A stretch of 64,000 bases of DNA, from the NCBI GenBank assembly GCA_043741435.1, contig JAYUBF010000332.1, forward strand, positions 22,279 to 86,278. Direction: 5' to 3'. The notes beneath the pieces were generated by a model. The model was given only the letters and a program-made list of their open reading frames with translations, had not been told where the DNA came from and ran no database searches. Source of the DNA: Myxococcales bacterium (GTDB taxonomy: Bacteria; Myxococcota_A; Polyangia; Palsa-1104). Position 1 is the first letter of the stretch, and each line of letters begins with the position of its first letter. Positions 2,334 to 39,506 of this stretch are shown piece after piece. The translations under genes were made by a program, and so were the position numbers.

Positions 2334-2336
2334 GCC

Positions 2337-3584: not shown

Positions 3585-3713
3585 CTGTCTAGTCCGAGCA
3601 AGGGTTACGCCACGCGGCCAGCGTCACGATCTCGCTTGGCTAGGCGATCCGCACGTTACCAATCAGGAACGGTGCAGGGGGCGAGGACGTCCGAAAGGTA
3701 GGCTGCGGTATCG

Positions 3714-10250: not shown

Positions 10251-10418
10251 TCGAATCGGTTCCCCTCGTGATTGGCACCAGCAGCCGCGGTGTTGCCGCG
10301 GAGAGCTGGGCACGCCGGCCGTACACACCGAGCCGCGAAGTGCCGACCGGTGCGCTTCGGTTCAACGCAGCCGCGTCTATACCACGGGCGCGGCTCCGGT
10401 ACACTCCCACCCGCTCAC

Positions 10419-11687: not shown

Positions 11688-11804
11688 CCAACGATCCGGA
11701 TCGCGACAGCCACGTCGCTGCCCCCTCAAAAAACTGAGTGCATCATGTCGGTGCTCGACGAGGCAGTGCTTCATGGTAGCGTCCGTCCGTTCTGGAGGTG
11801 CTGT

Positions 11805-14306: not shown

Positions 14307-14352
14307 CTTCACGACAGCAGCATGTGTTTCCCGGGTGCTGGTAGCCACGCCA

Positions 14353-14380
14353 TTGACGACAATGTAGGCGTGCTTACCCT
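14353..14380 (+). promoter_or_regulatory. candidate sigma-70-like promoter (TTGACG, 16 nt spacer, TACCCT) ending 6 nt upstream of the clpB ATG; possible leaderless clpB transcript
   Basis: ccaTTGACGacaatgtaggcgtgctTACCCTgcgcagATG. There is no Shine-Dalgarno sequence between the -10 element and the ATG. Confidence 0.25.
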
Positions 14381-14386
14381 GCGCAG

Positions 14387-23406: not shown

Positions 23407-24246
23407 ATGCGCCTTCCCATGACCCGAGCTCTTGCGTCTCCTCTTATGTTCGTATTGCTGGTGTTCGCGGTGCTGGCGGTCGCCGGCGGTTGCGACGATC
23501 GCTTTCCACCCAACTTCGACGCCGACAAGCGCTCGGGCCCCGACGGCAAGCGCTCCGGCGCCAACGTGTTGCGCACCAACAAGTCGCGCACCGATGAGGT
23601 CAGCTTCGTCCAGCAAGATCGCACCGACTGGTTCGTGGTGACGTTGAAGGGCCCACCCAACGTGCTCGCCGCCGAGCTGCACTGGGACAACGCCAAGAGC
23701 GACCTCATGGTCGACGTCTTCGACGAGTTCGGAAAACAGATCTCCGCTTCTCCGACGAGAGCGCCCGGCTCCACGCAAAAGATGTTGCTGACGCAGATCG
23801 ATCATCCGGGCGTGTTCTACATCCGCGTGTCGGCGCCGAAGCCCGACGACGGCAGTGTCTACACGATGGAAGCGAAGTGGGACACGCCACCGGATCTGCC
23901 GGCCGAGGTGCCGGTCATCCCGGTGCCGCTGCCACGTGAGGCGACGCCACGCGAGCCGAAGCCGAAGCACATCCCCAAGGAAGATCCGCCGCAGGAGACC
24001 ATCCAAGGTCACATCGTCAGCGCGTATCGCGAAGGTGGGTCGCTCACCATCCACATCGACAAGGGCTCGGGCGCCGGCGTGAAGGTCGGCATGAGCGGTA
24101 ACATCCTCACCGGCCCGTCGGGAGAGGATCCGTTGTCGGGCGGTAGCTTCCGCATCACGCAGGTGCTCGATGAGCGCAAGAGCGTCGCGCGCGCCTCCAT
24201 CGGCACCATCGGCAAGAACACCCGCGTCGCGATCACGGTGCGCTAG
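23407..24246 (+). CDS. lipoprotein, paralog B of the preceding gene (PPC-like domain plus the same C-terminal domain)
   Basis: Lipobox VAGGC. DRTDWFVVTLKGPPN...MVDVFDEFG...GVFYIRVSAPKPDDGSVYTMEAKW, then GHIVSAYREGGSLTIHIDKGS...FRITQVLDERKSVARAS. Clearly alignable to 22420..23376 by eye. Confidence 0.6.
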   Translation: MRLPMTRALASPLMFVLLVFAVLAVAGGCDDRFPPNFDADKRSGPDGKRSGANVLRTNKSRTDEVSFVQQDRTDWFVVTLKGPPNVLAAELHWDNAKSDLMVDVFDEFGKQISASPTRAPGSTQKMLLTQIDHPGVFYIRVSAPKPDDGSVYTMEAKWDTPPDLPAEVPVIPVPLPREATPREPKPKHIPKEDPPQETIQGHIVSAYREGGSLTIHIDKGSGAGVKVGMSGNILTGPSGEDPLSGGSFRITQVLDERKSVARASIGTIGKNTRVAITVR

Positions 24247-24247
24247 G

Positions 24248-25513
24248 GTGGCAGCGGGCGGCAACGATCCGCTCGTCGGCAAGGTCCTCGCCGATCGCTT
24301 CGAGATCCTCGAGCGCGTCGGCGACGGTGGCACGGGCGTCGTCTATCGCGCCAAGCAACTCTCGGTCGACCGCATCATCGCCGTGAAGGTCCTCGGCGCC
24401 CATGTCTCCACCGACCCTCAGTGGATGAAGCGCTTCCAGAACGAAGCGCGCGCCGCTTGCAAGCTCGAGCATCCCAACACCGTCCGCGTGCTCGACTTCG
24501 GGCAGACACGAGAGGGGCTGCTCTTCATCGCCATGGAGTACCTGCACGGTCGATCGCTGCGCGCGGAGATCGAGCGCTCGGGGCGCATGCAGCCCGTGCG
24601 CGTGTTGCAGATCGTCTCGCAGATCAGCGCGTCGCTCGCCGAGGCGCACATGATGGGGATCATCCATCGAGACATCAAGCCGGACAACGTGTTCCTCGTG
24701 GACATGAAGGGCGGTGGTGACATGGTGAAGGTGCTCGACTTCTCCGTCGCCAAGAGTGACTCACCCGACGCACAGCTCACGCGCGTCGGCGTGGTGTTCG
24801 GCACGCCCGCATACATGAGCCCCGAGCAAGGGCGCGGGATTCCGCTCGGGCCAGCGTCGGATCTCTACGCGGTCGGCATCGTCGCCTACGAGATGCTGAC
24901 GGGACGTCCTCCATTCCAAGCCACCATCCCCACCGAGGTGGTGATGATGCACCTGCGCAATGCGCCGCCGCCGATGCAGGGCGTACCACCAGCGCTGGCG
25001 AGCCTGGTGATGCGCACGCTCGAGAAGGACCCGAAGCGTCGTCCGCAATCGGCGACCGAGCTCGAGCAGCTGTCACAACAAGTGATGACAGAGCTCGGCG
25101 GCTACGGAAGCGGGAATCGCGTCGCTACGCCGCCACCTCGCTCTGCCGTCAGCAGCTCCGATCCGTATCTGCAATCGCATCCGCGAACGCAGGCGTTGCC
25201 TCCGCCGGGCGCGCCCGTGCTGATGGGCGACCGCGTGCTGCCTTCGGGCCATCCGGGCGGAACGATGGTCTTGCCCGAAGGTGGCTTGCCCGCGGGCACC
25301 GCTGGTCTGCCGCACAGCATTCCGTCGGGGAACTGGAACCAGCAGCAGCAGGTCGCTCAAGGCTTCAACGGTGCCGAGGACATCACTTTCGCCGGCCAGA
25401 CCAGCCTCCCGCCGGCACCCGCTGGCGCGCTCTTCTGGCTCGCGTGGATCCTGCTCGGCATCGGAGGTGGGCTCGCTGCTCACTTCTTCGTTCCGCATCG
25501 ACCTTTTTTCTGA
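24248..25513 (+). CDS. Hanks-type Ser/Thr protein kinase with a C-terminal TM anchor
   Basis: GxGxxG loop (GDGGTGVVY), VAVK, HRDIKPDN, the DFS variant of DFG (VLDFSVA) and APE (SPEQ). A C-terminal hydrophobic helix (ALFWLAWILLGIGGGLAA) follows. I called a GTG start at 24248 that overlaps the TAG stop of the upstream lipoprotein gene (TAGGGTG); the annotated ORF begins at 24170. Confidence 0.85.
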   Translation: MAAGGNDPLVGKVLADRFEILERVGDGGTGVVYRAKQLSVDRIIAVKVLGAHVSTDPQWMKRFQNEARAACKLEHPNTVRVLDFGQTREGLLFIAMEYLHGRSLRAEIERSGRMQPVRVLQIVSQISASLAEAHMMGIIHRDIKPDNVFLVDMKGGGDMVKVLDFSVAKSDSPDAQLTRVGVVFGTPAYMSPEQGRGIPLGPASDLYAVGIVAYEMLTGRPPFQATIPTEVVMMHLRNAPPPMQGVPPALASLVMRTLEKDPKRRPQSATELEQLSQQVMTELGGYGSGNRVATPPPRSAVSSSDPYLQSHPRTQALPPPGAPVLMGDRVLPSGHPGGTMVLPEGGLPAGTAGLPHSIPSGNWNQQQQVAQGFNGAEDITFAGQTSLPPAPAGALFWLAWILLGIGGGLAAHFFVPHRPFF

Positions 25514-27036: not shown

Positions 27037-27774
27037 ATGCCCATCGCCCTCGAGAGTGCTGGTAAGACCGACGTAGGGCTGGTGCGGGAGAAGAACGAAG
27101 ACGCGATGTTGCTCGAGCCGGCGTACGGGCTCTACGTCGTGTGCGACGGCATGGGCGGCCACGTCGGTGGTCAGGTCGCGAGCCAGCTCGCCGTCGCCAC
27201 CATGTCCGAGGTCGTGCGCACCAAGAATCCGGCCCCCACCGAGGACGACACCGACATCTTGGTCACGGCGATCCGTGCCGCGAACAACGCCGTGTTCGGG
27301 AAGGCCAAGGCCGAGCCCGCTCTGCACAACATGGGCACCACCGTCGTGGCGCTGCGGGGTGAAGGCAACTTCATGCACGTGTGCCACGTGGGAGACAGCC
27401 GCATCTACCGGCTGCGCCAGGGCAACTTCGAGCAGATCACGCGCGACCACTCGCTCATCAACCTCTACGAAGAGAACCCCGAGCTGGCGATTCGCTTCGG
27501 TCCGCCGAACGCGAACGTCATCGTGCGCGCGGTGGGCCTGCGCGACGGCGTCGAAGTGGATCACCGCAAGATCTCCCTCGAGGCCGGCGACATCTTCTTG
27601 CTGTGCTGCGACGGCCTCACCGACATGGTCGACGACTGGATGCTGAAGGAGATGCTCCTCGACGGCTCCAATGGCTCGCTCGACGAGTGCTGCGACACGA
27701 TGGTGCGCGCTGCCCTGACCAATGGCGGCGTGGACAACACCACGGTGGTCTTGGTCCGCGTCTCGGAAGTCTAG
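27037..27774 (+). CDS. PP2C-family Ser/Thr protein phosphatase
   Basis: PP2C motifs GKTDVGLVREKNED, VCDGMGGH, GTTVV, VGDSR and CCDGLTD. Confidence 0.85.
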   Translation: MPIALESAGKTDVGLVREKNEDAMLLEPAYGLYVVCDGMGGHVGGQVASQLAVATMSEVVRTKNPAPTEDDTDILVTAIRAANNAVFGKAKAEPALHNMGTTVVALRGEGNFMHVCHVGDSRIYRLRQGNFEQITRDHSLINLYEENPELAIRFGPPNANVIVRAVGLRDGVEVDHRKISLEAGDIFLLCCDGLTDMVDDWMLKEMLLDGSNGSLDECCDTMVRAALTNGGVDNTTVVLVRVSEV

Positions 27775-27776
27775 CT

Positions 27777-28205
27777 TCAACAGCTCTTGCGCAGCGTGGC
27801 CGCCTGAGTGAACGCGGCGAACGAATCTGCGTAGCGACGTGTCCGCGCGCGCAACCGGGCAATGCGCAGCCACAGCTCGGGGCCAGCACCAGGCAAGGTG
27901 GCGGCCTCGGTGAGTGAGGTGTCGGCGCCGGGAAAATCACCGCTCAAGATCTGCGCTTCACCGAGCGCCTCGAGGAGGATGCGGCGCCGTCGCCCGCGCG
28001 GCGACTGGCCGAGGCCTCCGCGCAGCGTGGTGGTGGCACGCGGTGGATCGTCGCGCAGCTGCACCATCGCGAGGCCGATCCGCGCCTCGAGGAAGCTCGG
28101 GCACAGCTCGACCGCGGCAGAGAACGCCTCGCGCGCGGCTGGCGCATCACCCCGGAGGCGTGCTTCGCGTCCGCGCAGGAAGTAGCGACGAGCGACCGCG
28201 CTCAC
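27777..28205 (-). CDS. TPR-repeat protein
   Basis: Helical repeats with a TPR-like pattern (A..Y...G......A...F..A). Confidence 0.5.
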   Translation of the reverse strand: MSAVARRYFLRGREARLRGDAPAAREAFSAAVELCPSFLEARIGLAMVQLRDDPPRATTTLRGGLGQSPRGRRRRILLEALGEAQILSGDFPGADTSLTEAATLPGAGPELWLRIARLRARTRRYADSFAAFTQAATLRKSC

Positions 28206-28209
28206 GACG

Positions 28210-28677
28210 CTAGTCTACTTCCAGCAGGGAGAAGCGCGTGCCGGTGTCCGATGGGCTCGGCTCTTCCTTGGCCTGCGCGGCAGGCGCAGCCGCTTGCGGT
28301 GCAGCAACGGGCGGCTGCGGCATGGGCGCGACCACCACCGTAGTGGTTGGGAGTGCGACCGCGGCAGGACGTGCTTGTAGGCGGATGCTACGACCATCGG
28401 AACGAACGCTGACGTCGGCGCCGGTGACCTCGAAGAGCGCAAGCTCCGGACAATCGACGTGGGTCTGCAACCAGACCATGAGTTCTGGAAATGCCATGCC
28501 CTCGATGTCGGTGCGCGCATCGAGCACGTTGCCTGCCGAGGACAAGGGTTGCGAGCCCTCGACGACGTATTCCTTGAACACGAGCGCGAGCACCTCGGCG
28601 AGCGAGTCACGCGAAAAGCTATCGAGCGCGCGCCGGATGTCCGTGAGGGCGCGACGAATCTGTTGTGGATCGTTCAT
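28210..28677 (-). CDS. hypothetical protein
   Basis: ORF packed between the TPR and pentapeptide genes, with a C-terminal Pro/Ala-rich tail. Confidence 0.45.
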   Translation of the reverse strand: MNDPQQIRRALTDIRRALDSFSRDSLAEVLALVFKEYVVEGSQPLSSAGNVLDARTDIEGMAFPELMVWLQTHVDCPELALFEVTGADVSVRSDGRSIRLQARPAAVALPTTTVVVAPMPQPPVAAPQAAAPAAQAKEEPSPSDTGTRFSLLEVD

Positions 28678-29390
28678 TCGGTTCTCCCCGCGAGGGCACC
28701 TTCGCGCTGGTCACGCAGCGCATCGGGTAAATCGGCGCCGATGGTTTGGCAGCCGACCAGCCGAGCACCAGTGGCTTCTGCTCCGGTGAGGGTAGCGCCC
28801 GAAAGATCGCAGCGCACGAACAACGCGCCGGCGAGGTCGGCGCGGTACAGATTGGCTCCGGACAGGTTGCAATCGATGAGCACGGCTCCGCTCAGCTTGG
28901 CGCGTGTCAGCTCGACGGCGGTGTTCGGCCGTGGGTCGGAGAAGCGGCAGCGGATCAGCGTGGCCCCGACGAGCCTGATGCCATAGAGCTGCGTCTCCAC
29001 GCAGCCGACATCGACCCATCGCGCGCCCGAGGCATCGACGTTGGCCAGCGTGCCGCGCAGAAAGGAGATGCGCTCCATGTGTGCTTCGACGAGCGACGCC
29101 TCGGTGAGGTCGGTGTCCTCGAAGCGCGCGTCCACGAGCACCGCCTCTTCGAAGCGGGCCTGCCGCAGGTCTACGCGCAGGAAGCTGGTGCGCCCGAGGT
29201 CGGCACGCGCGAAGTGGGACCCGGACAGGGCCATGCGCTCGAAGCGCGTGTCGTCGAGCACGGCAGGGGCCATGCGAAGCCCGGCGCAGTCGAAGCCCTG
29301 CACCGCTCGACCGCGAAGACCGCCTTCCTCGAGCAGGATCCGGACCTGCTCGCGACTCTCGATCACCGTGGCCGGCGGAACGGCGGTCAT
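28674..29390 (-). CDS. pentapeptide-repeat protein
   Basis: Long run of A(D/N)LxG/A(N/D)LSG pentapeptide units (ANLYRADLAGALFVRCDLSGATLTGAEATGARLVG). Confidence 0.75.
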   Translation of the reverse strand: MTAVPPATVIESREQVRILLEEGGLRGRAVQGFDCAGLRMAPAVLDDTRFERMALSGSHFARADLGRTSFLRVDLRQARFEEAVLVDARFEDTDLTEASLVEAHMERISFLRGTLANVDASGARWVDVGCVETQLYGIRLVGATLIRCRFSDPRPNTAVELTRAKLSGAVLIDCNLSGANLYRADLAGALFVRCDLSGATLTGAEATGARLVGCQTIGADLPDALRDQREGALAGRTE

Positions 29391-29408: not shown

Positions 29409-30041
29409 TCACCTGTCGTCGAACCCGAGGAGGTCCGCGTCGAGGCGACGGGCGTCGGCCACTTTCTCGAGGACCCGAAGCAAGATCTTCTCTCGGCGCT
29501 TTTCCGGATCGGCTGCCTTGGGTGCGTCGCCACCTTGGTCGCCCGCGAGCGACTTCGCTTCCGCATGCTCGGCTTCGCGCTCGTGTGCGGCGCCTTGACC
29601 ACCCTGCTCGAGCGCGAAGTTCATACCGCTCTGCGCTTGCTTGACGTGGGTGAGCTCGTGAGCGAGGAGCGCTCGACCTTCGCGCGTCTTGAGGTTCGTG
29701 CGAGGCGTGTCGCGCAACAGCACGAGGCCGGTACTTCCGACGGTGACAGCGTCGGCGCGATGACGACGGGTCACGCGCTCGGCGAAAGAGCCGCGGATGA
29801 TTCGGACGTCGCCGAAGTTGCCGCCAAGCTGCTTCTCCATGCGTTGGCGCGTGTCGGCATCGAGCTTCTCCGAATGGCCAGCACCGGACGCGGTGATGTG
29901 GCCCAGGCGTGACGCGTCGTAGCGGCGCGCCACGTCAGTGGCCAACGATTCGAGCTGGGCCTCTTCCCGCGCGGCGAGGCGAGTGCGCTCGTCGGCACTG
30001 AGGTTGAGATCGTCGAGAGACTTCGGATCGTCAGTCGCCAT
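29409..30041 (-). CDS. DUF4157-family protein (putative Zn-metallopeptidase-like; HExxH-like HELTHVKQ)
   Basis: Central motif ALLAHELTHVKQAQSG, matching my recollection of the DUF4157 signature (HEL.HV.Q). Start at the ATG at 30039-30041; the ORF track starts at an upstream TTG. Confidence 0.6.
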   Translation of the reverse strand: MATDDPKSLDDLNLSADERTRLAAREEAQLESLATDVARRYDASRLGHITASGAGHSEKLDADTRQRMEKQLGGNFGDVRIIRGSFAERVTRRHRADAVTVGSTGLVLLRDTPRTNLKTREGRALLAHELTHVKQAQSGMNFALEQGGQGAAHEREAEHAEAKSLAGDQGGDAPKAADPEKRREKILLRVLEKVADARRLDADLLGFDDR

Positions 30042-30137: not shown

Positions 30138-30545
30138 TTACTTGTCGAGCTCCTGGGTCATCATGTCCCAGCCCGTATACGACTGGCCGTCATGGGTTGC
30201 GGTGCCGACGCCCGCCTTGAAGGTGAAGGTGGTGGCGGTGCCGCGGACGATCTGCAGCGTCTTCATCTGACACACGGCCTTCTTCGAGGCGGCGTCATTA
30301 CAGTAAGCGGCCGGGCCAGAGGCGACGCTCTCGGCGACGTGTTTTACCTGGTAGAGATCGTCGTTGTTCTTGGTGGTGCTCTCGGTCACCGTGATCTTGA
30401 GCGCACATCCGCACGCGGCCTTGAACTTGGTCTCGGCATCTTTCACGGCCGGCTCCACGTCGCTCTTCATGTACTCCCGCTCGGCCTTACCAGCCAATGC
30501 GGTGATGGAAAGAAACAACGATGCGGTGACGAACAAGCGCTTCAT
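30138..30545 (-). CDS. small secreted protein (signal peptide, 4 Cys)
   Basis: Signal peptide MKRLFVTASLFLSITALAG. Local GC is clearly below the window average. Confidence 0.5.
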   Translation of the reverse strand: MKRLFVTASLFLSITALAGKAEREYMKSDVEPAVKDAETKFKAACGCALKITVTESTTKNNDDLYQVKHVAESVASGPAAYCNDAASKKAVCQMKTLQIVRGTATTFTFKAGVGTATHDGQSYTGWDMMTQELDK

Positions 30546-31009
30546 GGATGCTCCTTGGTATCGGGGTGGATGGCTTTGACGATATCGTCGACTCGAAATT
30601 TATCGGAGGCGGTTTCAGAGTAGGTGAGCTCGAACTCGGTCGACGACTTCGGCTGGAAGAACGTCCAGCGGTTGTCGCGGGCGGCCAGCAGGACCGTTCT
30701 ATACGGCTTGCTGCCGCGCTTGTGATCGAGATAGGCGTTCTTCGTCCCGTGCCCGAGGTCTTCGTACGAGTAACGCAGGGTTTTGCCTTCGAGCTCCCCA
30801 CCGAGATTCTTCAAGTAGACGAGAATCTCTTTGCCCTCGTTGATCTCGAGCATGACGACGACCTGGCCTTCAGGCCCTTTGAACGCTTTGAGCGGCCCCG
30901 AAGGCGTGACCTTGGCACCGAAGGTGGTGGTGATCCGATCGTCTGCCCGTGACTGTAGCGCGGGCGCCACACACAAGACGACCAAGGTCACGAACAGCAG
31001 CGAACGCAT
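30542..31009 (-). CDS. small secreted protein
   Basis: Signal peptide MRSLLFVTLVVLCVAPALQSRA. The ATG overlaps the TGA stop of the upstream gene (TGATG), so the two genes appear translationally coupled. The annotated ORF extends to a TTG at 31063. Confidence 0.5.
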   Translation of the reverse strand: MRSLLFVTLVVLCVAPALQSRADDRITTTFGAKVTPSGPLKAFKGPEGQVVVMLEINEGKEILVYLKNLGGELEGKTLRYSYEDLGHGTKNAYLDHKRGSKPYRTVLLAARDNRWTFFQPKSSTEFELTYSETASDKFRVDDIVKAIHPDTKEHP

Positions 31010-31614
31010 CAACGCCCCTTCCCGCACGATTTTACGACGTTCTCTTCCATCAACACCTCGCAAGCATTTTTACTCAGGTAGGCGTCGGGTCTATCTTTCT
31101 CTTCGAGGAAGTCAGCGCGGAATTCTTTGTCCTTCAGACATTGCTTGACGACGTTCTTCGCTTTCGCGTAGTTCGACGAAGGGTTCGTGTTCTTGGGATG
31201 CGACAGCGTCTTGGTAAGGACCTCGTAGGCGGCGAGCTCGTTGCAGCCGCTCAGCGCGTGACCGACGAGCACTGCGACCAAGGCGACCGAGTTTTCCGGC
31301 GCGCTGAGCCGCTTGACCGAGCCGATGAAGTCGAGGTCGGTGGCCTTGCTCTTCAGCGGCTCGAGCACGGCCACAGCCCTTTCGATGCAGCGCATCTGAA
31401 GCTCTACCTGTCCGAGGAGCCGGGTCTGATCACCGGTTTCGGTCTTGGTGCTCTCCACCAGGTGATCCATTTGCAGGCACTTCTCGAACCCCTCCAGGGT
31501 TTTGAAGGCAAACAAGTCGGCCCGAGCGATCGCAGGCGACAAAAGGACCGTCACGAAGGCGAGCGCTGTGGGCCCTACGAAACGCGTCCGGAAGCTTGGC
31601 ACAGTCATCTCCAT
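31009..31614 (-). CDS. secreted protein (signal peptide, 6 Cys)
   Basis: Signal peptide ...ALAFVTVLLSPAIARA. Lower-GC region. Confidence 0.5.
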   Translation of the reverse strand: MEMTVPSFRTRFVGPTALAFVTVLLSPAIARADLFAFKTLEGFEKCLQMDHLVESTKTETGDQTRLLGQVELQMRCIERAVAVLEPLKSKATDLDFIGSVKRLSAPENSVALVAVLVGHALSGCNELAAYEVLTKTLSHPKNTNPSSNYAKAKNVVKQCLKDKEFRADFLEEKDRPDAYLSKNACEVLMEENVVKSCGKGR

Positions 31615-31805
31615 GTCTCTCGATGGGCGAGGTGATCGAAGCTAGCTGGCGATCATATCTTAGTCTCCGTGACATTTCACTCAGCGGCGGAGACGGTTGA
31701 GCGGTGGCAATTTCATTCGCCGCTGCAGCCGACGTCCGCGACCAAGCATCTCAAGACGTTGCGTTGTTCTAACGTGGCCCGCTTCGTGCTCGCCACGGAT
31801 GCTCG

Positions 31806-32309
31806 ATGCGAATCGCGGTTGTGCTGGTGCTTGGGTTGAGGATGGTGGGCGCGGCCAATGCGGGTCCCGCCGATGTATTGCCGATGCGGGCCCGCGCGCT
31901 GCTCACGCAACGTCCGGATCGGGACGGGCCGAATTGTCTCAACGCGGTCGAGCTGTACCATGGGCTCGCCCGGGCCCAACGCTGGACCGCTTGGCGTGTG
32001 CTGGACCGCAAGCTCCGCACGGCGAATCGGTTCCGCGAGATGCGCGCCAACGAACTATCACAGCTCGGCGACGTGATCCTGTACCGCCACGGACCGCTCG
32101 ACTTGATCGAGCATGGCGCAATCTTCGTCGACTCTCTTCACGTGTGGGAAAAGGCAAACGCCGACGCGACGAGCACCTGGCAGTTCACGTCGCACGAAGC
32201 TTCCGCGGCGCCTTATGGCTACACCATCGTGCAACGCTGGCGCAGGCTCGACGCGCGCCGCCAAAGGCCTGACCTCGACGGCAAACAGCTGCTACCGACC
32301 GGGCCGTAG
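31806..32309 (+). CDS. secreted hypothetical protein
   Basis: Signal peptide MRIAVVLVLGLRMVGAANA. It is the only plus-strand ORF in this block. Confidence 0.4.
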   Translation: MRIAVVLVLGLRMVGAANAGPADVLPMRARALLTQRPDRDGPNCLNAVELYHGLARAQRWTAWRVLDRKLRTANRFREMRANELSQLGDVILYRHGPLDLIEHGAIFVDSLHVWEKANADATSTWQFTSHEASAAPYGYTIVQRWRRLDARRQRPDLDGKQLLPTGP

Positions 32310-32358: not shown

Positions 32359-32568
32359 TTACCGCCCGGTTTTCTGCGTGTTGCCGATGTCCGTGTTGTT
32401 CTCGTAGTACTCGGGTAGGAGCTCGCGGGCCTGGACCTTGTTGCCGAGGGCTTCCTCGAGGAACTTGGTGTCGTCGACGCAGGTGGTGCCATCGCCGCAC
32501 TTCACGCGCACGGAGACGTTGCCGTCGGGGCCGATGGTGATCTCGAGCTCTTTCTTCTTGGCCGACAT
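32359..32568 (-). CDS. DUF2997-family small protein
   Basis: 69 aa: MSAKKKELEITIGPDGNVSVRVKCGDGTTCVDDTKFLEEALG. This matches the DUF2997 pattern (E I T I . P D G . V . V . V . G . . G . . C . . . T . . L E . . L G). Confidence 0.6.
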   Translation of the reverse strand: MSAKKKELEITIGPDGNVSVRVKCGDGTTCVDDTKFLEEALGNKVQARELLPEYYENNTDIGNTQKTGR

Positions 32569-32580
32569 GGTCTGTTCCTC

Positions 32581-32976
32581 CTAACCCCACTTCGAGACGT
32601 TGAGCTTGACCGTGCCGTCCTTCTGTACCGCGTTCTCATCGATGGTGTAGCCGGCGTCTTCCACCGCGGCCACCACCTTCTGATACGCGTATTTCGAATT
32701 GATCTCCTTCGCGATCTCCTGCTCCGTCGCTCCGCGGGTGGTCTCTATTCCCCACCAATCGGCGACGAGCTCGTAGCCGCCGTTCTCGGCTTTCACGACG
32801 GCGACGTCGTACTTGCCCATGTCGATGGCGATCTCGGCCTGCATCGTCGCGCCCTTCCAGCCGCGAACCGTGACGCCGGCTTCCTCGTGCTTGTACTTCC
32901 AGCCGAGCGCATCGAGCGCCTTTTTGAGGCACACGAGGTCGGTTATCTGCGTTTGGACTTTGGTGAAGTGCGACAT
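32581..32976 (-). CDS. DUF1257 (Ycf35-like) family protein
   Basis: 131 aa beginning MSHFTKVQTQITDLVCLKKALDALGW, the hallmark DUF1257 N-terminus. It lies 4 bp downstream of the AAA gene. Confidence 0.6.
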   Translation of the reverse strand: MSHFTKVQTQITDLVCLKKALDALGWKYKHEEAGVTVRGWKGATMQAEIAIDMGKYDVAVVKAENGGYELVADWWGIETTRGATEQEIAKEINSKYAYQKVVAAVEDAGYTIDENAVQKDGTVKLNVSKWG

Positions 32977-32979: not shown

Positions 32980-34524
32980 CTAGACCTCGAGCTTTCGTTC
33001 CGGCGCAGCGAAGCGATCACCCTTGGGCTTCGCCTCCGTCGAGAACGACGCGCTGCGCGCGCGGGTCTTGGCCCACTCGCGCATGGTGTCGATACCTTCC
33101 TTCATCGTTACGGCGAGCGGTACGATCTCGCGCGCTGCCGCGAGCAACCCCTCGGGCGTGACGTCGCGCTCCGCATCGAACGCGTCGTACAGCGCCGAGA
33201 TGACGGCCTGCTCGATCTCGGCGCCCGAGAACTCCGGCATGGCTTCGACGACCTTGGCGATGTCGAGCGTCTCCGGATCACGCTTCTTCTTGCGCAAGTG
33301 GATGTCGAGGATGCTCTTGCGCTCGTCGCGCGTCGGTAGATCGACGAAGAAGATCTCGTCGAAGCGACCTTTGCGCAGGAGCTCGGGCGGCAGCGCACGA
33401 ACGTCGTTCGCGGTGGCGATTACGAACACGGGTGCCGTCTTCTCCTGCATCCACGTGATGAACGTACCGAACACGCGCGACGTGGTGCCGCCGTCGGACA
33501 TGTTCGAGCTCCCGGTGCCGGAGAAACCCTTCTCGATCTCGTCGAGCCAGAGGACCGCCGGCGCGATGGCCTCGGCGGTCTTCAGCGCCTTGCGGATATT
33601 CTCCTCTGAAGCACCGACCAGGCCGCCCATGATTTTGCCCACGTCGAGGCGCAGGAGCGGCATCTGCCACGCAGCCCCGACGGCCTTCGCGGTGAGCGAC
33701 TTGCCGCAGCCGGGCACGCCGATGAGGAGGATCCCCTTCGGCAACGGGAGGCCGAAGTCGCGGGCCTTCTGCGTGAAGGCGCCGCGCCGCTTCTGCAGCC
33801 AGGTCTTCAGCGTCTCGAGCCCACCGATCTCGTCGAGCGACTCGGCGGTCTCGTAGTACTCGAGGATGCCGCTCTTGCGGATGATGTGCTTCTTCTCCTC
33901 CAGCACCGTTCCGATGTCGAAGGTCTTGCAGCGCACGATCGACTTCGCGAAGACGTTCTCCGCCTCGATGTACGTGAGACCCAGCGCGGCCTCGACGAGG
34001 CGCTCGCGGCCACTCGGGTCCGAGGCCATGCCAGGGTCCACGCCCGTAGGCAGCTCGCTGAGCAGCTTGCCGATGATGCCGTCGATCTCCGCGCGATCCG
34101 GCAGGTCCCAGTCGACGATCGCGACCTCCTTCTCGAGCTCCGGCGGCATCTTCAGCACGGGCGAGAGGAACAGCACGCTCTTCTGCGACTTCTTGAGATC
34201 GTGGCCGAGATCGCGCAGCTTGCGCACGACCTGAGCGTTGTCGAGGAACGCGTGGAAGTCGCGCAGGATGTAGAGGCCTTTGCCCTCGGCACCGGCGATG
34301 TGATCGAGCGCCTTCAGCGGATCTTTCACGTCGCCGCCACGATGCTCTCCGGCAAGCTGCACGAACCCGCGCGTGATCGACCACGCCACGAGCCGTCGCT
34401 CACGCCGGAGGGCGAAGTCGCGCAGCATGCGCTCCACCCGCTGCTCCTCCGACGACACGATATAGACGAGCGGATATCGCGCCTTGACCAGATCTTCGAC
34501 TTCCGTCGTGCTCGGTATCGCCAT
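32980..34524 (-). CDS. AAA+ ATPase with a single classical AAA domain and an N-terminal domain of about 230 aa (Ycf46-like architecture)
   Basis: Walker A GILLIGVPGCGKSLTAKAV, Walker B VLWLDEIEKGF, sensor-1 (VIATAN) and an Arg finger region (RKGRFDEIFFVDLP). Confidence 0.85.
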   Translation of the reverse strand: MAIPSTTEVEDLVKARYPLVYIVSSEEQRVERMLRDFALRRERRLVAWSITRGFVQLAGEHRGGDVKDPLKALDHIAGAEGKGLYILRDFHAFLDNAQVVRKLRDLGHDLKKSQKSVLFLSPVLKMPPELEKEVAIVDWDLPDRAEIDGIIGKLLSELPTGVDPGMASDPSGRERLVEAALGLTYIEAENVFAKSIVRCKTFDIGTVLEEKKHIIRKSGILEYYETAESLDEIGGLETLKTWLQKRRGAFTQKARDFGLPLPKGILLIGVPGCGKSLTAKAVGAAWQMPLLRLDVGKIMGGLVGASEENIRKALKTAEAIAPAVLWLDEIEKGFSGTGSSNMSDGGTTSRVFGTFITWMQEKTAPVFVIATANDVRALPPELLRKGRFDEIFFVDLPTRDERKSILDIHLRKKKRDPETLDIAKVVEAMPEFSGAEIEQAVISALYDAFDAERDVTPEGLLAAAREIVPLAVTMKEGIDTMREWAKTRARSASFSTEAKPKGDRFAAPERKLEV

Positions 34525-34561: not shown

Positions 34562-36526
34562 TCAGACCACTTCGCGCAGCGTGCGCAGGACGTTCTTTGC
34601 TTCTTCGGTTCGCTCTACGGAAGCGGTGATCGCGTCCTTGAGCGAGCGGGTGGCTTCGCCGTCGGCGCCCAACTCTTCGACGAGTCGCTGCGCGAGCAGC
34701 ACGTGGGTGCGCAGCTCGGACAGGGCATCGTTCACGCCATCGTGCGCAGCTTCCGCCCGTCGCTGGATCTCGGCGATTCCAGCGGTCCCGTTGGTCGGCG
34801 CGCTGGCTTCGAGCTCGGCCCTGGCGATCGCGAGATCGGACCCCAGCAACGACAGCTCTTCTTCGAGCTCGCGGATCCGGATCTCGGCGGGCGCCGCGTG
34901 GCGTCGGCCATCTTCGCCGCCACCCCACGTGGACTCCTCGAGGTCGCCGCTGATGGGTCCCGTCGGGAGATCACTGCCGGTGGCGGCTTCGAGCAGATCA
35001 CCCGACAGCGTGACCTGCTCGCCGCGCTGACCGGTCGGCTTCGCCGCATCGGAGCGCTTGCGCGCGAGGTCGGCGTCCTTGCGCGCTTCGATGGCTTCTT
35101 GGCTGGCCTGCATCGCGCGCTGGTTCGCTTCGTCGAGCTCGCGACGCAGCTGCGCGATCTCGCCCATCAGGCGACCGGACGTGTCCTCGAGCATGCGTCG
35201 AGAATCTTCCGAAGCTTGACGCTGCAGCTCGGCGCGTTGCAGTGCTTCTTCGGCGCGTTCACGGGCGGAGATGGCGCGCTGCTTCTCCTCGAGCGCGTGC
35301 GTTCGCTCGACGTCGAGGTTGGCCACCTTCTGCTCCGCCAACGTGCGCGCCGCATCGGCTCGCTCGGCGCGCTCGAGCAACCGATCGCGCTCCGCCTCGA
35401 GGGTCTTCTGCGCGACGCGCGCTTGTCGCAGATCGCTCGCCAGCTGCAGCGCCTCTTCCGCGGTGCCACCGGTGCCGTCTGCCACTTTGCGCTGCAGACG
35501 TCGGTGCTCTTCGTCGAGCCCCTCGAGCTGGTTGCGCATCGCGACGAGTTGTTGCTTGGCATCGTCACGCTCGGTGCGCGTGATGACGAGCTCGCGCAGC
35601 GTGCGTTCTTTCTCTTGTCGCAGCTCTTGCGCCGATGATTCGAGCGCGATGAGGCCCACGCGACGCTCTTCCAACAGGCGCTCTTGCTCGGAGATGACGG
35701 CGCGCAGCCCGTCGAGCTCACCCGCGCGATTGTTGAGCTCGCGCCAGCCCGCGTCCTTGGTGCGCTCGAGCTCGACCAAGCGACCACGCGCCTCGTCGAG
35801 CGTGTGCTTGGTCCGCTGCACGTCCTCGAGAGAGCGCTCGAGCTGGCGATCACGTGCTTGCAGATCACCCGACGCCTTGTCGTGGCGATCACGCAGCTCG
35901 ATATGTTCCTTGCGGAGGCTGTCGATGTCCGTGCGGAGCTGCTCCGACACCCGCAGCGTGGCGTTGAGCTCCTCGTCGGTGCTCTGACGGATGCGCGACA
36001 GCTCGCTGAACTTGTCGCGTTGGATCGCGACCTCCGCACGCAGGCGTTGCAGCTCCGCACTGTCCGTCTCGCTGCGCGAACGCAGCGCGTCGAGCTCGCG
36101 ACCGAGGTCGAAGAGCTGTTGCTCCTTCGCGGATCGGTCGGCGAGCACCGACTCGAGCTCGCGCCGCGCCAGGTCGAGCTCACCCGACTCCTCCATGAGG
36201 CCCGGGTCCACGGCGATGCGGCTCGACGGCTTGTCATCGATGATGACGAAGCGGACCTGAAGCGTGCCGCAGCGCACGATGTCCGCGTGGCGCAGCTGCT
36301 GCTTCTGCACGCGCTGATCGTTCACGAAGGTGCCGTTCGAGCTCCCCAGGTCTTCGACGAACCAAGCGCCGCTTTCGAGCCACAGCCGATAGTTGCGGCG
36401 CGATACCATCGCGTCATCGGTCCGGACCACGCACTCCTGCGCTCGTCCCACGAAGGAGCCTTCCGGCTGCACGTCCGCGGACGCGTCCCTGCCTTGCGCA
36501 TCGCGGTAGAGCAACCGACCCTTCAT
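34562..36526 (-). CDS. FHA-domain protein with a very long coiled-coil (SMC/myosin-tail-like) C-terminal region
   Basis: N-terminal FHA domain (FVGRAQECVVRTDDAMVSRRNYRLWLESGAWFVEDLGSSNGTFVND). About 500 aa of heptad-like sequence rich in E, R, L and A follows. Confidence 0.75.
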   Translation of the reverse strand: MKGRLLYRDAQGRDASADVQPEGSFVGRAQECVVRTDDAMVSRRNYRLWLESGAWFVEDLGSSNGTFVNDQRVQKQQLRHADIVRCGTLQVRFVIIDDKPSSRIAVDPGLMEESGELDLARRELESVLADRSAKEQQLFDLGRELDALRSRSETDSAELQRLRAEVAIQRDKFSELSRIRQSTDEELNATLRVSEQLRTDIDSLRKEHIELRDRHDKASGDLQARDRQLERSLEDVQRTKHTLDEARGRLVELERTKDAGWRELNNRAGELDGLRAVISEQERLLEERRVGLIALESSAQELRQEKERTLRELVITRTERDDAKQQLVAMRNQLEGLDEEHRRLQRKVADGTGGTAEEALQLASDLRQARVAQKTLEAERDRLLERAERADAARTLAEQKVANLDVERTHALEEKQRAISARERAEEALQRAELQRQASEDSRRMLEDTSGRLMGEIAQLRRELDEANQRAMQASQEAIEARKDADLARKRSDAAKPTGQRGEQVTLSGDLLEAATGSDLPTGPISGDLEESTWGGGEDGRRHAAPAEIRIRELEEELSLLGSDLAIARAELEASAPTNGTAGIAEIQRRAEAAHDGVNDALSELRTHVLLAQRLVEELGADGEATRSLKDAITASVERTEEAKNVLRTLREVV

Positions 36527-36593
36527 CCCAGGTCATCATGACACGACCCACGGCCAAATTCCCGCCAGTGCTGGCCTAAAGGTCGACTAGAGC

Positions 36594-37175
36594 TTAGCCC
36601 TTGAACAGTGCTTCGCTGGTGCCGATGCGGATGATGTCGCCCGCGACGAGCTTGCGGCGCGCGCTCTTTTCGCCGTTCACATAGACGCCGTTGGTGGAAC
36701 CGAGGTCGGCGAGCTCGTAGCCGCCATCGACCCGGCGAATGCCCGCGTGCTTGCGCGACACACCGGTGTCTTTGAGCAGCACCGAGTTGCCTTCGAAGCT
36801 GCCGATCGTGGTGACGTCCGCGTCGAGGAAGAAGTTTTGTCCGGCGAGGGGGCCGGTACGGAACTCGATCGCGGCCCGACCCGAGGAAACGGCGGCCGCC
36901 GGCGTCGCCACCCGTGCGCCGTTCGTCGCGGGTGCCGCGCTCGAGCGCGCGCTACCGCAGGCGGGACAGAGGCGCCAGCTGGCCTGCACCCCGCCACCGC
37001 ACGTCGGGCACGCGCCTCTCTGCGCGCGACGACGATTCGAGACCACGGCCATGCGTAGGATGAACAAGGCCATCACCACGACCGCGGCGACCACGGCGGC
37101 AAGAAACCATCGTGGCGGCGGCTCGGCCACCACGGCGACCTCGTCGGCCATCGAGAGGAGCAGCAAGGCGATCAC
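36594..37175 (-). CDS. membrane protein with a zinc-ribbon and a C-terminal FHA domain
   Basis: TM helix (AAVVAAVVVMALFIL), then a Cys4 ribbon (CPTCGGG...CPACG), then an FHA domain (ADLGSTNGVYVNGE). Confidence 0.7.
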   Translation of the reverse strand: MIALLLLSMADEVAVVAEPPPRWFLAAVVAAVVVMALFILRMAVVSNRRRAQRGACPTCGGGVQASWRLCPACGSARSSAAPATNGARVATPAAAVSSGRAAIEFRTGPLAGQNFFLDADVTTIGSFEGNSVLLKDTGVSRKHAGIRRVDGGYELADLGSTNGVYVNGEKSARRKLVAGDIIRIGTSEALFKG

Positions 37176-37181
37176 GGCGTG

Positions 37182-38612
37182 CTACTGCACCACCGACTTG
37201 AACTTGAACTCGCTCCGACCGAGAACGATGCGGTCGTTGTCGACGAGCTCGTGCTCGCGCACCTTCTTCTCGTTCACCACCATGCCGTTGGTGGATCCGA
37301 GATCGATCAACCGGAAGCGCTGACCGTCGCGCCTCACCTCGGCGTGGCGCGACGAGGCGAAGGAGTCGTCGATGACGACGTCGCAATCGGGCGCGGTGCC
37401 GATGATGGTGCGGCCGCCTTGGTTGAGCGAAAACGTCTTGTCGACGTTTCGGCCGCTGAGCACGACCAACCAACCGACGGCTTGCACCTTGCCACCCCCG
37501 GCCCCACCCATCGCCATCGTGCGCGACGGTGCGCCCGCGGGCTGTGGCGCCGGCGCTGCGAACTGCATGGGCTGTTCATCGCGCTCGCGGAAGATGAGCC
37601 ACACGATGAGCATCACCAGCAGCACCCCACCGCCGATGCAGAGCGCCCACAGCCACCAGCGACGCGCCTGCACCTTGGTGACGACGAGATGCGTCGCCGG
37701 CGGGACGGAACGAATGTAGTTATTGGACGAAGCGATGTGTCCCCCCGCCTCGGCCGAGATCTGGAACGTATGGAACTTGCCGTCGCCGCCCGCGATGCCG
37801 AGCTCGTACGTCGCGATGTATTGCTTGCGCAGCTCGTCGGCCACGTTCTGGAACTCCGTGGTGACCTCGTTGCTGCTCTTGCATGTGCGCTCGCCGCCGT
37901 TCGATTGCTTGGTGAGCTCGGTGAGGTTGCGCAGGCGGGCCGGCTCGAACGGTGCGTAGCCGATGGTGTCGATGACGATGCCGCCATCGACGGCGCGCAT
38001 CGCGACGGATTTGTAGGTCTTCCTCTCCATGTTGACGTCGATACCATCGGAGAAGAGCACGATGAGCTTGCGCTGATCTTTCGGCGCGGCGTTGAGCAGA
38101 TCGATGGAGGTTCGCAGCGCATCGAGCAGGTGGACCTCGACGAGCTCGGTGTCGGTCTGCAGCTGGTTGGCGGCGGCCTCTGCATCGGCGGGCGGACCCA
38201 GCTCGGCAAGGCGCTTCGTCTCGGCGGAGAAGCCGAGCAAGGCCATCTTGGACTTGGCTGGAAGTGCGTTCGCCAACATCTTCACGCCCTTCTTGATGTC
38301 GTCGGAGACCTCGAGCATGGCCTGTGACACCTGCACCACGACGACGAGGTTCACTGGCTCGTTCGAGGCATCGAAGACCTGTAGATCTCTCGCTGCACCC
38401 TGCTCCGCCGAATCGAGGATGAGCTTGAACTCCTCCTTCGCGCGCCCGGAGATCAAACGCCCATCACCGTCGGTGAGCGTGAGGTACGCCTTCATGGTGG
38501 GCGAGCGTGTCAGGTCGATGCGCTCGAGGCGCAGCTTGTCTGCCGCGAGCGCGGGTGCGCAAAGAGCCAGGGATGAAAGAACAACGGCGATGCACGCCGA
38601 GCGCAGGGTCAT
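37182..38612 (-). CDS. secreted/membrane vWA-domain protein with a TM helix and a C-terminal cytoplasmic FHA domain
   Basis: Signal peptide; a vWA-like domain whose MIDAS-like motif is partly degenerate (VVVQVSQAM...LFSDGIDV); a TM helix (WWLWALCIGGGVLLVMLIVWLIF); and an FHA domain (IDLGSTNGMVVNEKKV). Confidence 0.75.
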   Translation of the reverse strand: MTLRSACIAVVLSSLALCAPALAADKLRLERIDLTRSPTMKAYLTLTDGDGRLISGRAKEEFKLILDSAEQGAARDLQVFDASNEPVNLVVVVQVSQAMLEVSDDIKKGVKMLANALPAKSKMALLGFSAETKRLAELGPPADAEAAANQLQTDTELVEVHLLDALRTSIDLLNAAPKDQRKLIVLFSDGIDVNMERKTYKSVAMRAVDGGIVIDTIGYAPFEPARLRNLTELTKQSNGGERTCKSSNEVTTEFQNVADELRKQYIATYELGIAGGDGKFHTFQISAEAGGHIASSNNYIRSVPPATHLVVTKVQARRWWLWALCIGGGVLLVMLIVWLIFRERDEQPMQFAAPAPQPAGAPSRTMAMGGAGGGKVQAVGWLVVLSGRNVDKTFSLNQGGRTIIGTAPDCDVVIDDSFASSRHAEVRRDGQRFRLIDLGSTNGMVVNEKKVREHELVDNDRIVLGRSEFKFKSVVQ

Positions 38613-39427
38613 GTCGATTTGAATTTGAAGGACGTGCGTCCCAGTCGGAGCGTATCACCGTCGACCAGATCGGACTGGGTCACGCGCTTGTCATTGACGA
38701 AGGTTCCGTTCGTGGAGCCGAGGTCGCTGACGCGAAACACGCCGGCTTGCGCGCTGAACTCCGCATGACGGCCGCTGACCGACGAGTCGCTGACCAGCAC
38801 GTCGCAATCCGGCGCGGTCCCCACGACGGAGCGGGCCCGCAGCTCGAGCAGCTGCCCTCCTTGCGGACCGTCGAGCGGGATGATCCAGGCGACGAGGCGA
38901 GAGGCCGACGACCCACCGTGCGCGACGCCGCCACCACCGCTGTCGATGTCCATGGTGCGGGGCTTGTTACCGCCACCGCCGTAGTTGCTACCGCCGTGGC
39001 CGACATCGAGCGATTCGGTGCGGGGCGATGCACCGCCCGCTGGCTGGCCACCGTTGTCGACCTGGTTGCCGAAGCCGCAGTAGGGGCACAGCTCCCAACG
39101 CGCATCGAGCTTCTCGTTGCAGTTGGGACAGCGCTTCTTCTTCGAGAAGAGGCCCATCTTCTTGTTGTTCGCTCCTGGTTGAGGCGCCGTGCCGCCTCTG
39201 TTCTTCAGCTGGCCCGCTTGGTTCGCGAGCTGCTTCGCCTGATGCCCGTATTGCTGCATCTGCTGCTTGTTGTACTGGAGCTCGCTGCGAAGTTCGTTGG
39301 GCAGCTGACGTACGCGGTTGATGTTGCCGCGAATTTGTCCTTCGAAGTTGCGCACGCTCGATGTCTTGCCGCGCATGAAGTCCAGCGGCGCGCGCAAAGT
39401 GCGCAAGAGATCGTCGAAGAACGACAT
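38609..39427 (-). CDS. zinc-ribbon plus FHA domain protein with a Gly-rich linker
   Basis: Cys4 ribbon (CPNCNEKLDARWELCPYCG), then an FHA domain (GRHAEFSAQAGVFRVSDLGSTNGTFVNDKRV). The gene overlaps the next gene by 4 bp. Confidence 0.7.
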   Translation of the reverse strand: MSFFDDLLRTLRAPLDFMRGKTSSVRNFEGQIRGNINRVRQLPNELRSELQYNKQQMQQYGHQAKQLANQAGQLKNRGGTAPQPGANNKKMGLFSKKKRCPNCNEKLDARWELCPYCGFGNQVDNGGQPAGGASPRTESLDVGHGGSNYGGGGNKPRTMDIDSGGGGVAHGGSSASRLVAWIIPLDGPQGGQLLELRARSVVGTAPDCDVLVSDSSVSGRHAEFSAQAGVFRVSDLGSTNGTFVNDKRVTQSDLVDGDTLRLGRTSFKFKST

Positions 39428-39506
39428 CCGTCTGAAAGACTAGCACACCCCCCGCAGCCGTGTTCCGCAAGCCTGGTTGAAGTGTCGCTGCGGCAAATGC
39501 TTTCAA

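Follow-up and report, generated by a model that had tools for sequence, protein, structure and literature searches.

Contractile injection systems (CIS) are evolutionary cousins of type VI secretion systems (T6SS), which have among their hallmarks a post-translational control through threonine phosphorylation and a dedicated membrane complex to which they dock. CIS of the extracellular type (eCIS) are generally viewed as free particles released by lysis, and in a few cases as cytoplasmic or thylakoid-bound machines. In the T6SS, PpkA carries an extracellular vWA domain (PMC3224232) and Fha binds phosphothreonine (pThr) 14 of the membrane protein TssL, which activates secretion (PMC3953482). 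In eCIS, DUF4157 marks toxins and effector handling (Geller et al. 2021, PMC8213781), and in Sulfolobus the interaction of ArnA with ArnB is switched by Ser/Thr phosphorylation and a phosphatase (PMC6509490, PMC12852372). Here we analysed a stretch of 64,000 nucleotides from contig JAYUBF010000332.1 of a Myxococcales bacterium (hereafter the window), in which four consecutive genes at positions 34562-39427 encode FHA-domain proteins, named FHA1 to FHA4 (the quartet). Comparison with other genomes shows that this tandem FHA array is a displaced half of an injection-system cluster, rather than a flagellar or a T6SS component.

The FHA quartet in contractile injection clusters

The quartet occupies four adjacent open reading frames (ORFs) on the reverse strand, in agreement with the initial annotation, and the four distinct architectures listed there were found again. 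FHA1 (38609-39427, 272 residues) joins a Zn ribbon to an FHA domain and is predicted to be soluble. FHA2 (37182-38612, 476 residues) consists of a signal peptide, a beta-sandwich and vWA region, a transmembrane (TM) helix, a disordered linker and an FHA domain (residues 402-465). FHA3 (36594-37175, 193 residues) has an N-terminal TM helix, assigned by hydropathy to residues 19-48 and the only one in the protein, followed by a juxtamembrane Cys4 Zn ribbon and an FHA domain (residues 122-185). FHA4 (34562-36526, 654 residues) starts with an FHA domain (residues 26-87) and continues with a long coiled coil (about 450 residues of coiled-coil composition with weak SMC/Rad50 matches) and a conserved C-terminal stretch of about 70 residues. 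Scores against the Pfam FHA model (PF00498, gathering cut-off 20.7 bits) were 68.6, 69.1, 59.2 and 57.1 bits for FHA1 to FHA4, with E values from 6.5e-19 to 2.6e-15; matches to Pfam Yop-YscD_cpl were also obtained. The CPNC...CPYC motif of FHA1 is recognised as Zn_ribbon_3 (28.7 bits for a cut-off of 27). That of FHA3, CPTC...CPAC, stays under the Pfam cut-offs, and its CxxC...CxxC pattern is kept in all orthologues aligned. FHA1, FHA2 and FHA4 are among the ORFs that passed a coding-signal filter based on GC content at third and second codon positions (GC3/GC2), with GC3 of 0.80-0.86, and FHA3 is not among them.

The vWA domain announced for FHA2 was recovered both by profile (VWA_2, 30.3 bits for a cut-off of 27) and by fold, Foldseek matching it to vWA domains with TMt up to 0.78, but the DxSxS metal-ion-dependent adhesion site (MIDAS) is missing: the sequence reads QVSQA at a position that varies across the family. 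Hydropathy places the signal peptide of FHA2 at residues 1-26 and its TM helix at 318-344. In its AlphaFold2 (AF2) model, with a predicted local distance difference test score (pLDDT) of 83.5, the beta-sandwich and vWA part leads into a TM helix (319-340), followed by a disordered stretch (344-374) that links it to the FHA domain (378-475). FHA2 and FHA3 are thus predicted to be bitopic inner-membrane proteins, with the vWA/beta-sandwich part of FHA2 in the periplasm and all FHA domains and both Zn ribbons in the cytoplasm. This predicted topology makes part of the trans-envelope assembly proposed earlier plausible, namely a periplasmic vWA and cytoplasmic FHA domain in FHA2 and a membrane-anchored FHA3, but the predicted anchoring concerns the inner membrane only.

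Searches with FHA2 returned 158 homologues at E<=1e-5. Those listed, 120 in number, share 42-77% identity with FHA2 along most of its length and, where a source name is given, all belong to Myxococcota (Polyangia or Myxococcales metagenome-assembled genomes, MAGs). A profile-guided scan of one genome per species yielded about 29 loci with orthologues, and proteins of the window and of CIS were mapped onto all loci by tblastn. About 30 other Myxococcota loci have the block to which the quartet belongs, with its genes in an unchanged order and at 40-74% identity. FHA1 orthologues were present in 28 loci, each time as the first of the quartet, and the gene following FHA4 encodes an AAA+ ATPase at every locus. 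Where flanking sequence exists, the order is gp25 (Cis9), Baseplate_J (Cis11, 1000 residues), a P2_I-like protein (Cis12), a Cis13-like protein (about 520-550 residues), FHA1-4, AAA, DUF1257 and DUF2997; this succession of CIS genes and quartet was counted in about 25 genome loci and in 3 metagenome loci. Upstream of gp25 there are genes for a small Zn protein, for a spike of the GPD/VgrG type and for a CIS_tube protein. NCBIfam models identified the P2_I protein as CIS12-like (CIS12_fam) and the N-terminus of the 549-residue protein as CIS13-like (CIS13_fam). The 35-kb metagenome contig L069 holds a full machine: two genes each for sheath and gp19-type tube and one for a 1378-residue protein, besides CIS_tube, GPD spike, gp25, Baseplate_J and P2_I. 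When the search was started from the CIS side, the quartet was carried by L058, L069 and L071, that is by all metagenome loci of this CIS lineage with enough downstream sequence, and was absent from the more distant CIS lineages of the same metagenome search. In other Myxococcota the quartet is therefore encoded between CIS baseplate genes and the AAA+ gene.

In one subgroup the series continues with eCIS_core, pentapeptide, 155-residue and TPR proteins and a convergent PP2C phosphatase gene, so that the block amounts to at least 12 conserved genes: FHA1-4, AAA+, DUF1257, DUF2997, DUF4157/eCIS_core, pentapeptide, 155-residue protein, TPR and PP2C. The impression of an isolated oddity, which the array had given at first, does not survive this comparison, since the same quartet stands, in the same order, at the front of this block elsewhere. 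Two further observations were made in these clusters. The Cis12/P2_I-like baseplate protein of L004 (5395-7395) has a PASTA domain at its N-terminus; such modules bind peptidoglycan fragments and are typical of PknB-type kinases. Paralogues limited to the periplasmic ectodomain of FHA2 (residues 3-326, 32-35% identity) occur at L035-L043, for example at L036 10001-10972, in the same MAGs as full-length FHA2. Matches in Anaerolineae and Acidobacteriota (L046-L054) involved single domains and were set aside.

The same families were found in spirochaetes, in a leaner form with one Zn-ribbon-FHA and one vWA-TM-Zn-ribbon protein. In the CIS cluster L045 of a Spirochaetales MAG, a Cis13-like gene is followed by genes for a 124-residue Zn-ribbon-FHA protein and for a 391-residue protein made of signal peptide, vWA, TM helix and Zn ribbon, and genes of the AAA, DUF1257, DUF2997 and pentapeptide families lie intermixed with those for sheath, tube and spike. 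L139 and L140 share this arrangement. The best plasmid match of the window AAA+ protein (54.7%) lies in a CIS region of pTRESU01, from the cultured Treponema succinifaciens DSM 2489, with the order Cis13-like, FHA, VWA, sheath, tube, LysM, VgrG; AAA, DUF2997 and pentapeptide genes are also present. DUF1257 is found in the L045, L139 and L140 clusters, and is not shown for pTRESU01. In spirochaete clusters the pentapeptide protein comes after AAA-DUF2997. The presence of the same accessory families in CIS clusters of two phyla indicates that FHA, vWA, Zn-ribbon, AAA, DUF1257, DUF2997 and pentapeptide proteins belong to one CIS lineage as a conserved accessory set, whose domains are divided differently among proteins in Myxococcota and in spirochaetes. 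This also assigns a context to the widespread, uncharacterised AAA+/DUF1257/DUF2997 trio. We noted in addition that pTRESU01 (NC_015386.1, about 9.4-84 kb; L137, L138) holds at least 5 VgrG/Pvc8 genes accompanied by cassettes of PAAR, M23 peptidase, SH3 and polymorphic toxins, in the manner of T6SS effector islands, and that a radical-SAM/4Fe-4S gene sits directly upstream of AAA+ in all four spirochaete clusters (L045 15338-15961, L139 14839-15420, L140 15866-16342 and L137 19345-19953).

The window departs from this organisation: flgE precedes FHA1, and CIS structural genes were not detected in its 64 kb. Its close relatives differ in this respect. In L055 (74% identity) CIS genes are still upstream of the quartet, and the AAA and DUF1257 genes of this locus (14277-16229) are in fragments, from pseudogenisation or long-read assembly error. 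In L056 (77% identity; 3-4558) the genes directly upstream of FHA1 are those of a large Ser/Thr kinase, which is partial, and of an FHA-sigma54 enhancer-binding protein, and in a contig from JGI (76%; P0004) three unrelated genes are inserted between FHA3 and FHA4. Taken with that of the window, these last two contexts mean that the block is detached from CIS structural genes in this clade, and they indicate that the module is able to persist without CIS alongside. The four FHA genes are intact: their ORFs are free of frameshifts, and the ratio of nonsynonymous to synonymous substitution rates (dN/dS) between the window and L056 is 0.22-0.39. Over FHA1-4, AAA and DUF1257 the ratio ranges from 0.14 to 0.39, and it reaches 0.52 for the 68-codon DUF2997, indicating continued purifying selection on the block. 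It is therefore probable that this bacterium has its CIS genes elsewhere in the genome, or else that it has co-opted the module. A split cluster is nothing unusual in this CIS lineage: one subgroup gives no match within 2-3 kb upstream of gp25 for the tube and spike genes of the other subgroup, and the gene that comes next upstream in L004 is on the opposite strand.

A candidate phospho-switch and its alternatives

The disordered linkers of FHA1 and FHA2 are rich in Gly and Pro and variable, except for one element of consensus [RK]-T-[MIV]-A-[LMI]-[DE], located about 25-30 residues upstream of the FHA domain. In the window it reads RTMDID in FHA1 (residues 157-162, 38942-38959, reverse strand), a candidate phospho-acceptor or FHA ligand, and RTMAMG in FHA2 (residues 364-369, 37506-37523, reverse strand), whose T365 is invariant in a 30-sequence family alignment; FHA1 has a second copy, RTESLD (residues 136-141, 39005-39022, reverse strand). 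In the form [RK]T[MIVQ][ASD][LMI][DEN], the motif is present in 28 out of 28 full-length FHA1 orthologues, amid variable flanking linker, and the Thr motif was found in 31 out of 32 FHA2 orthologues. In some FHA4 orthologues it directly follows the FHA domain. The FHA2 copy is located where the pLDDT of the AF2 model is below 50 (residues 344-374), which is what one expects of a short linear motif. The residue at +3 of the motif is hydrophobic, and it is a hydrophobic residue at this position that is bound by FHA domains of the pTxx(I/L/V) class.

The closest solved relatives of these FHA domains are GarA/OdhI and FhaA (E about 1e-13, 34-40% identity, root-mean-square deviation (rmsd) 0.8-1.7 A), and the FHA part of the FHA2 model superposes on GarA with an rmsd of 0.8 A, which together with the profile scores supports the FHA folds assigned at the outset. 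GarA/OdhI is switched by binding its own upstream pThr. The FHA core, described initially as canonical, is so only in part. Of the phosphate-binding residues, the Ser of SxxH and the Asn of NG are present in all four domains. Where the GR motif has its Arg, FHA1 and FHA2 show a family-conserved Thr and FHA3 a conserved Ser; only FHA4 keeps this Arg, but it has SRxN in place of SRxH.

We propose that the quartet is an accessory module of a CIS lineage, which would form a phospho-switchable inner-membrane platform controlling the CIS, analogous to PpkA-PppA-Fha/TagH of the T6SS; we give this interpretation a probability of roughly 55%. The mechanism is inferred from context and sequence, and the association of the window module with CIS comes from comparative context only. 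A Hanks-type Ser/Thr kinase would phosphorylate the invariant Thr of the linker motif in FHA1 and FHA2; the window holds a candidate for this role, a PknB-like kinase at 24170-25513 on the forward strand. The conserved PP2C would remove the phosphate; the Stp1/IreP-like Ser/Thr phosphatase at 27037-27774 (forward strand, convergent on the block) scored 224.3 bits for a cut-off of 230, and L013, L055 and the JGI locus have their PP2C at the same place and in the same direction. FHA domains would read the pThr, a role for which FHA4, as the only one with the canonical Arg, is the best candidate. The outcome would be a multivalent, phospho-switchable network at the membrane, with the FHA4 coiled coil as scaffold, setting the place and time of CIS assembly, docking or firing and handing on to the AAA+/DUF1257/DUF2997 and DUF4157 effector-handling genes.

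Several points weigh against this proposal. Three of the four FHA domains are without the Arg on which pThr binding depends in FHA proteins that have been characterised, and in Agrobacterium the R30A/S46A mutation of Fha abolishes its function (PMC3953482). Judged from their sequences, classical pThr reading by FHA1-3 is doubtful; their binding may be different or weaker. FHA4 of the window has no Thr motif of the kind present in some of its orthologues. The kinase is not a strictly conserved neighbour: kinases are encoded near the block in L004, L022 and L056, a linkage weaker than that of PP2C. CIS structural genes were not found in the 64-kb window by tblastn with 12 CIS proteins (E>0.07) or by Pfam scans of the remaining large ORFs, and the two closest readable relatives, L056 and the JGI locus, either have no adjacent CIS genes or contain insertions. 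Finally, the C-terminal head of the Cis13-like protein resembles CBM6/35, as in receptor-binding tail fibres of released particles, and thus favours an extracellular CIS over an anchored one. This protein (L004 7434-9083, P0123 and orthologues) has no Pfam domain and 808 family members at E<=1e-10, and its AF2 model (pLDDT 66.5) best matches TssK of the T6SS, weakly (E 2e-5, TM-score 0.23-0.38). Whether the machine is anchored or released is ambiguous from these models of the Cis13-like protein. A bolder version, in which the FHA/vWA/Zn-ribbon proteins are the membrane complex of a cell-anchored, hitherto unrecognised firing mode of an eCIS-type machine in Myxococcota and Spirochaetota, gated by Thr phosphorylation, with bitopic proteins replacing TssJLM and the Cis13/TssK-like protein connecting them to the baseplate, would constitute an independent route to type-VI-like secretion; we regard it as speculative and rather unlikely.

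Other explanations assign the quartet to different tasks. As an effector-loading or substrate-adaptor module, the FHA proteins would bring cargo or CIS subunits to the Cdc48-like AAA+ protein, acting with DUF1257 and DUF2997, and would serve particle maturation instead of signalling or docking at the membrane. The invariable position of the FHA4 gene just upstream of the AAA+ gene fits this role, as do the eCIS_core and pentapeptide genes downstream of the block; AAA is a core domain of eCIS and DUF4157 their cargo marker (PMC8213781), and effector loading by Pvc15-type ATPases is described (PMC11495950). We nonetheless consider loading unlikely, because it would account neither for the signal peptide and the two TM anchors nor for the periplasmic vWA domain and the conserved PP2C, and because sheath, tube and spike genes separate the spirochaete FHA/vWA pair from the AAA gene. 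A general-purpose Ser/Thr signalling module for the envelope or cell wall, like the mycobacterial FhaA/FhaB(FipA)-PknB-PstP system and merely travelling with CIS clusters, would account for the best NCBIfam matches (FhaB_Rv0019c and OdhI), for FhaA and GarA being the closest solved FHA domains, for the nearby PknB-like kinase and Stp1-like PP2C, for the TM-plus-FHA layout that FHA3 shares with FhaB, and for the persistence of the block in three close relatives without adjoining CIS genes. The scores, however, are far under the cut-offs (53-71 for 125 bits with NF049868, FhaB/FipA; 38-74 for 200 bits with NF041660, OdhI/GarA), no rodA, pbpA or division genes are nearby, and the embedding among CIS structural genes is strict and order-preserving in two phyla, so that this explanation appears improbable.

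Control of the flagellum, on the model of the archaeal ArnA/ArnB phospho-switch that represses the archaellum, is suggested by the window itself. FHA1 begins 79 bp after flgE on the same strand with no minus-strand terminator-like site in between, the best match of FHA2 among folds in the PDB is the ArnAB complex (8s05, E 5e-13), and FHA1 has the architecture of ArnA, a Zn ribbon followed by FHA (PMC6509490, PMC12852372). Against it, the flagellar adjacency is unique to the window among about 30 loci, flgE, flgD, fliI and fliF not being found by tblastn near the module in the others; the eCIS_core, AAA, DUF1257 and DUF2997 partners are kept in the window; and ArnB is a cytoplasmic protein whose MIDAS is intact and whose C-terminal helix bundle is phosphorylated, whereas the vWA of FHA2 is exported and has no MIDAS. 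We give a motility regulator little credence. An FHA ring protein of a type III secretion or flagellar apparatus was also considered, in view of the Yop-YscD_cpl matches and the flgE adjacency, and was rejected as no other locus links the quartet to flagellar genes. Least probable of all, in our opinion very remote, is an anti-phage or biological-conflict system of the vWA/FHA/kinase/phosphatase "ternary" type. Combinations of vWA, FHA, kinase and PP2C do occur in conflict systems (PMC7159879) and in the threat-sensing Esr pathway (PMC13622651), and the AAA protein is partly similar to IetA/IteA; but PADLOC gave no match for the four FHA proteins, DUF1257 and two small neighbours and only partial ones, IetA/TRIP13, for AAA, the profile matches of AAA stay far under the cut-off (67.6 bits for 510), a MoxR ATPase is lacking, and the CIS context explains the neighbourhood better.

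Surroundings of the quartet in the window

Downstream of the quartet, and separated by short gaps only, the reverse strand encodes a 514-residue AAA+ ATPase of the classic clade (32980-34524), with an N-terminal domain (1-230) followed by a Cdc48-D2-like AAA module, and the DUF1257 (32581-32976, 131 residues) and DUF2997 (32359-32568, 69 residues) proteins. The nearest solved relatives of the AAA+ domain (PF00004) are the D2 domains of Cdc48/p97. Its position and PF00004 fit Cis15/Afp15/Pvc15, to which it is likened by position and domain only, and no CIS-labelled model was among its NCBIfam matches. The rest of the block on this strand consists of the 210-residue DUF4157/eCIS_core protein with its HExxH motif (HELTH; 29409-30041), the 238-residue pentapeptide-repeat protein conserved with the block (28674-29390), the conserved 155-residue protein (28210-28677) and a 142-residue TPR protein (27777-28205). 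Between DUF2997 and eCIS_core, four small proteins are encoded (30138-32309), for which tblastn gave no counterpart in the other loci: those of 167, 199 and 155 residues have a hydrophobic, signal-like N-terminal segment and the fourth, of 135 residues, has none. The same gap is filled in the JGI contig of P0052 by a 692-residue double-AAA protein and a 259-residue protein.

On the other side, the flagellar genes directly upstream of the quartet had gone unmentioned in the initial annotation. The flgE-FHA1 junction (39428-39506), where other genomes have the Cis13-like baseplate/fibre gene, is seen in two assemblies (the 121-kb NCBI contig and a Logan contig) and shows no change in base composition; no sigma-70-like promoter was found in the stretch scanned. 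Beyond it extends a near-complete flagellar cluster (39507-63863, reverse strand) with fliA, flgG/H/I/K/L, fliC, fliD, fliE/F/G/H/I/J, a possible fliK, flgD and flgE. The other genes of the contig are closest to those of Polyangia/Myxococcales MAGs; to our knowledge, classical myxobacteria are not flagellated. Farther from the quartet, a RecQ-like helicase (864 residues, reverse strand) and a DNA methyltransferase-like protein (471 residues, forward strand) are encoded at 7734-11687 by ORFs overlapping at their 5' ends, followed by an 853-residue protein with no Pfam match (11745-14306); the 7734-14306 region may be a defence or mobile-element island. The neighbouring ClpB gene (14387-17011) encodes an ordinary ClpB, judged by its domains. 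Pfam scans and tblastn agreed with the initial statement that T6SS genes are missing from the window, none of TssB/C, Hcp, TssJLM, TssK and ClpV being found there.

Comparison with known systems

Sequence and structure place the closest FHA domains in GarA/OdhI and in the mycobacterial FhaA (Rv0020c) and FhaB/FipA (Rv0019c). The Thr motif in a flexible segment upstream of the FHA domain recalls the self-binding pThr of GarA. Unlike in these mycobacterial and corynebacterial proteins, the Arg of the GR motif is replaced in FHA1-3, and partners and genomic context differ. ArnA/ArnB of Sulfolobus offers another parallel, a Zn finger-FHA protein being paired there with a protein made of vWA and beta-sandwich. 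The Arn pair is, however, cytoplasmic and archaeal, ArnB having an intact MIDAS and a phosphorylated 4-helix bundle, while the vWA of FHA2 is exported without MIDAS or helix bundle and FHA2 carries its own FHA domain; the overall TM-score of FHA2 with ArnAB is just 0.34-0.42. In the Esr pathway of Actinomycetales (2026 preprint, PMC13622651), a kinase/phosphatase pair likewise sets the Thr phosphorylation of an FHA output protein, which is encoded in an Esx secretion system and proposed to gate it. Esr differs by its MoxR-vWA and beta-propeller sensors and its control of type VII secretion, and no homology was found beyond the shared domains.

The T6SS PpkA/PppA/Fha1-TagH system and the module have several features in common: genes for FHA protein(s), a PP2C and a Hanks kinase accompany those of a contractile machine, an extracytoplasmic vWA domain is borne by a bitopic membrane protein (PpkA, PMC3224232), and FHA4, with its N-terminal FHA domain and long extension, resembles the Fha/TagH layout. 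In the T6SS, pThr on a membrane component is read by Fha, which triggers assembly (PMC3953482). The differences are also clear. The vWA domain is fused to FHA here and to the kinase in PpkA, four FHA proteins and two Zn ribbons are present, and three of the four FHA domains lack the pThr-binding Arg. The TagH model TIGR03354 (VI_FHA) was missed, with 34.6, 36.7 and 31.3 bits for FHA1, FHA2 and FHA3 against a cut-off of 120.25; these three match by their FHA domain only and FHA4 gives no match. Orthologous loci carry an eCIS-type machine (Phage_sheath_1, gp19 tube, Cis12/Cis13), and no TssB/C, TssJLM or ClpV was seen there. With the NCBIfam cut-off missed and T6SS core genes not found, membership in the T6SS Fha/TagH family was rejected. 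Of the PpkA/Fha-like logic suggested at first, the occurrence of orthologous quartets in CIS clusters and the conserved PP2C neighbour are in favour, but the assignment to the T6SS family itself is not borne out by TIGR03354.

The literature that we searched contained no paper linking FHA domains to eCIS-type systems and none describing the DUF1257/DUF2997/AAA trio functionally; among the matches listed for papers naming DUF1257 or DUF2997, none concerned injection systems. The eCIS surveys (Chen 2019, Geller 2021) do not mention FHA, vWA, PP2C or other phosphatases, or Myxococcota, and their only kinases are histidine kinases upstream of GerE regulators. Control of secretion by FHA, PP2C and kinase is already known from the T6SS; for such a module with eCIS-type CIS, the literature searched gave no description. 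Concrete targets are available, namely the invariant Thr motif, four FHA domains with distinct pockets and a cultured carrier, T. succinifaciens DSM 2489.

With eCIS (Afp, PVC, AlgoCIS; cis1-cis16), the orthologous loci share the order of sheath, tube, Cis7-like, spike, gp25, Baseplate_J, P2_I and Cis13-like genes, ending with AAA+, and DUF4157 effector-marker genes at the 3' end (PMC8213781). They differ in that the quartet fills the slot between cis13 and AAA+, and the window differs further in that structural genes were not found in it. A membrane-anchored FHA/vWA/Zn-ribbon module with PP2C, present in eCIS-type clusters of two phyla, suggests that a phospho-relay positions or switches some of these machines from the inner membrane.

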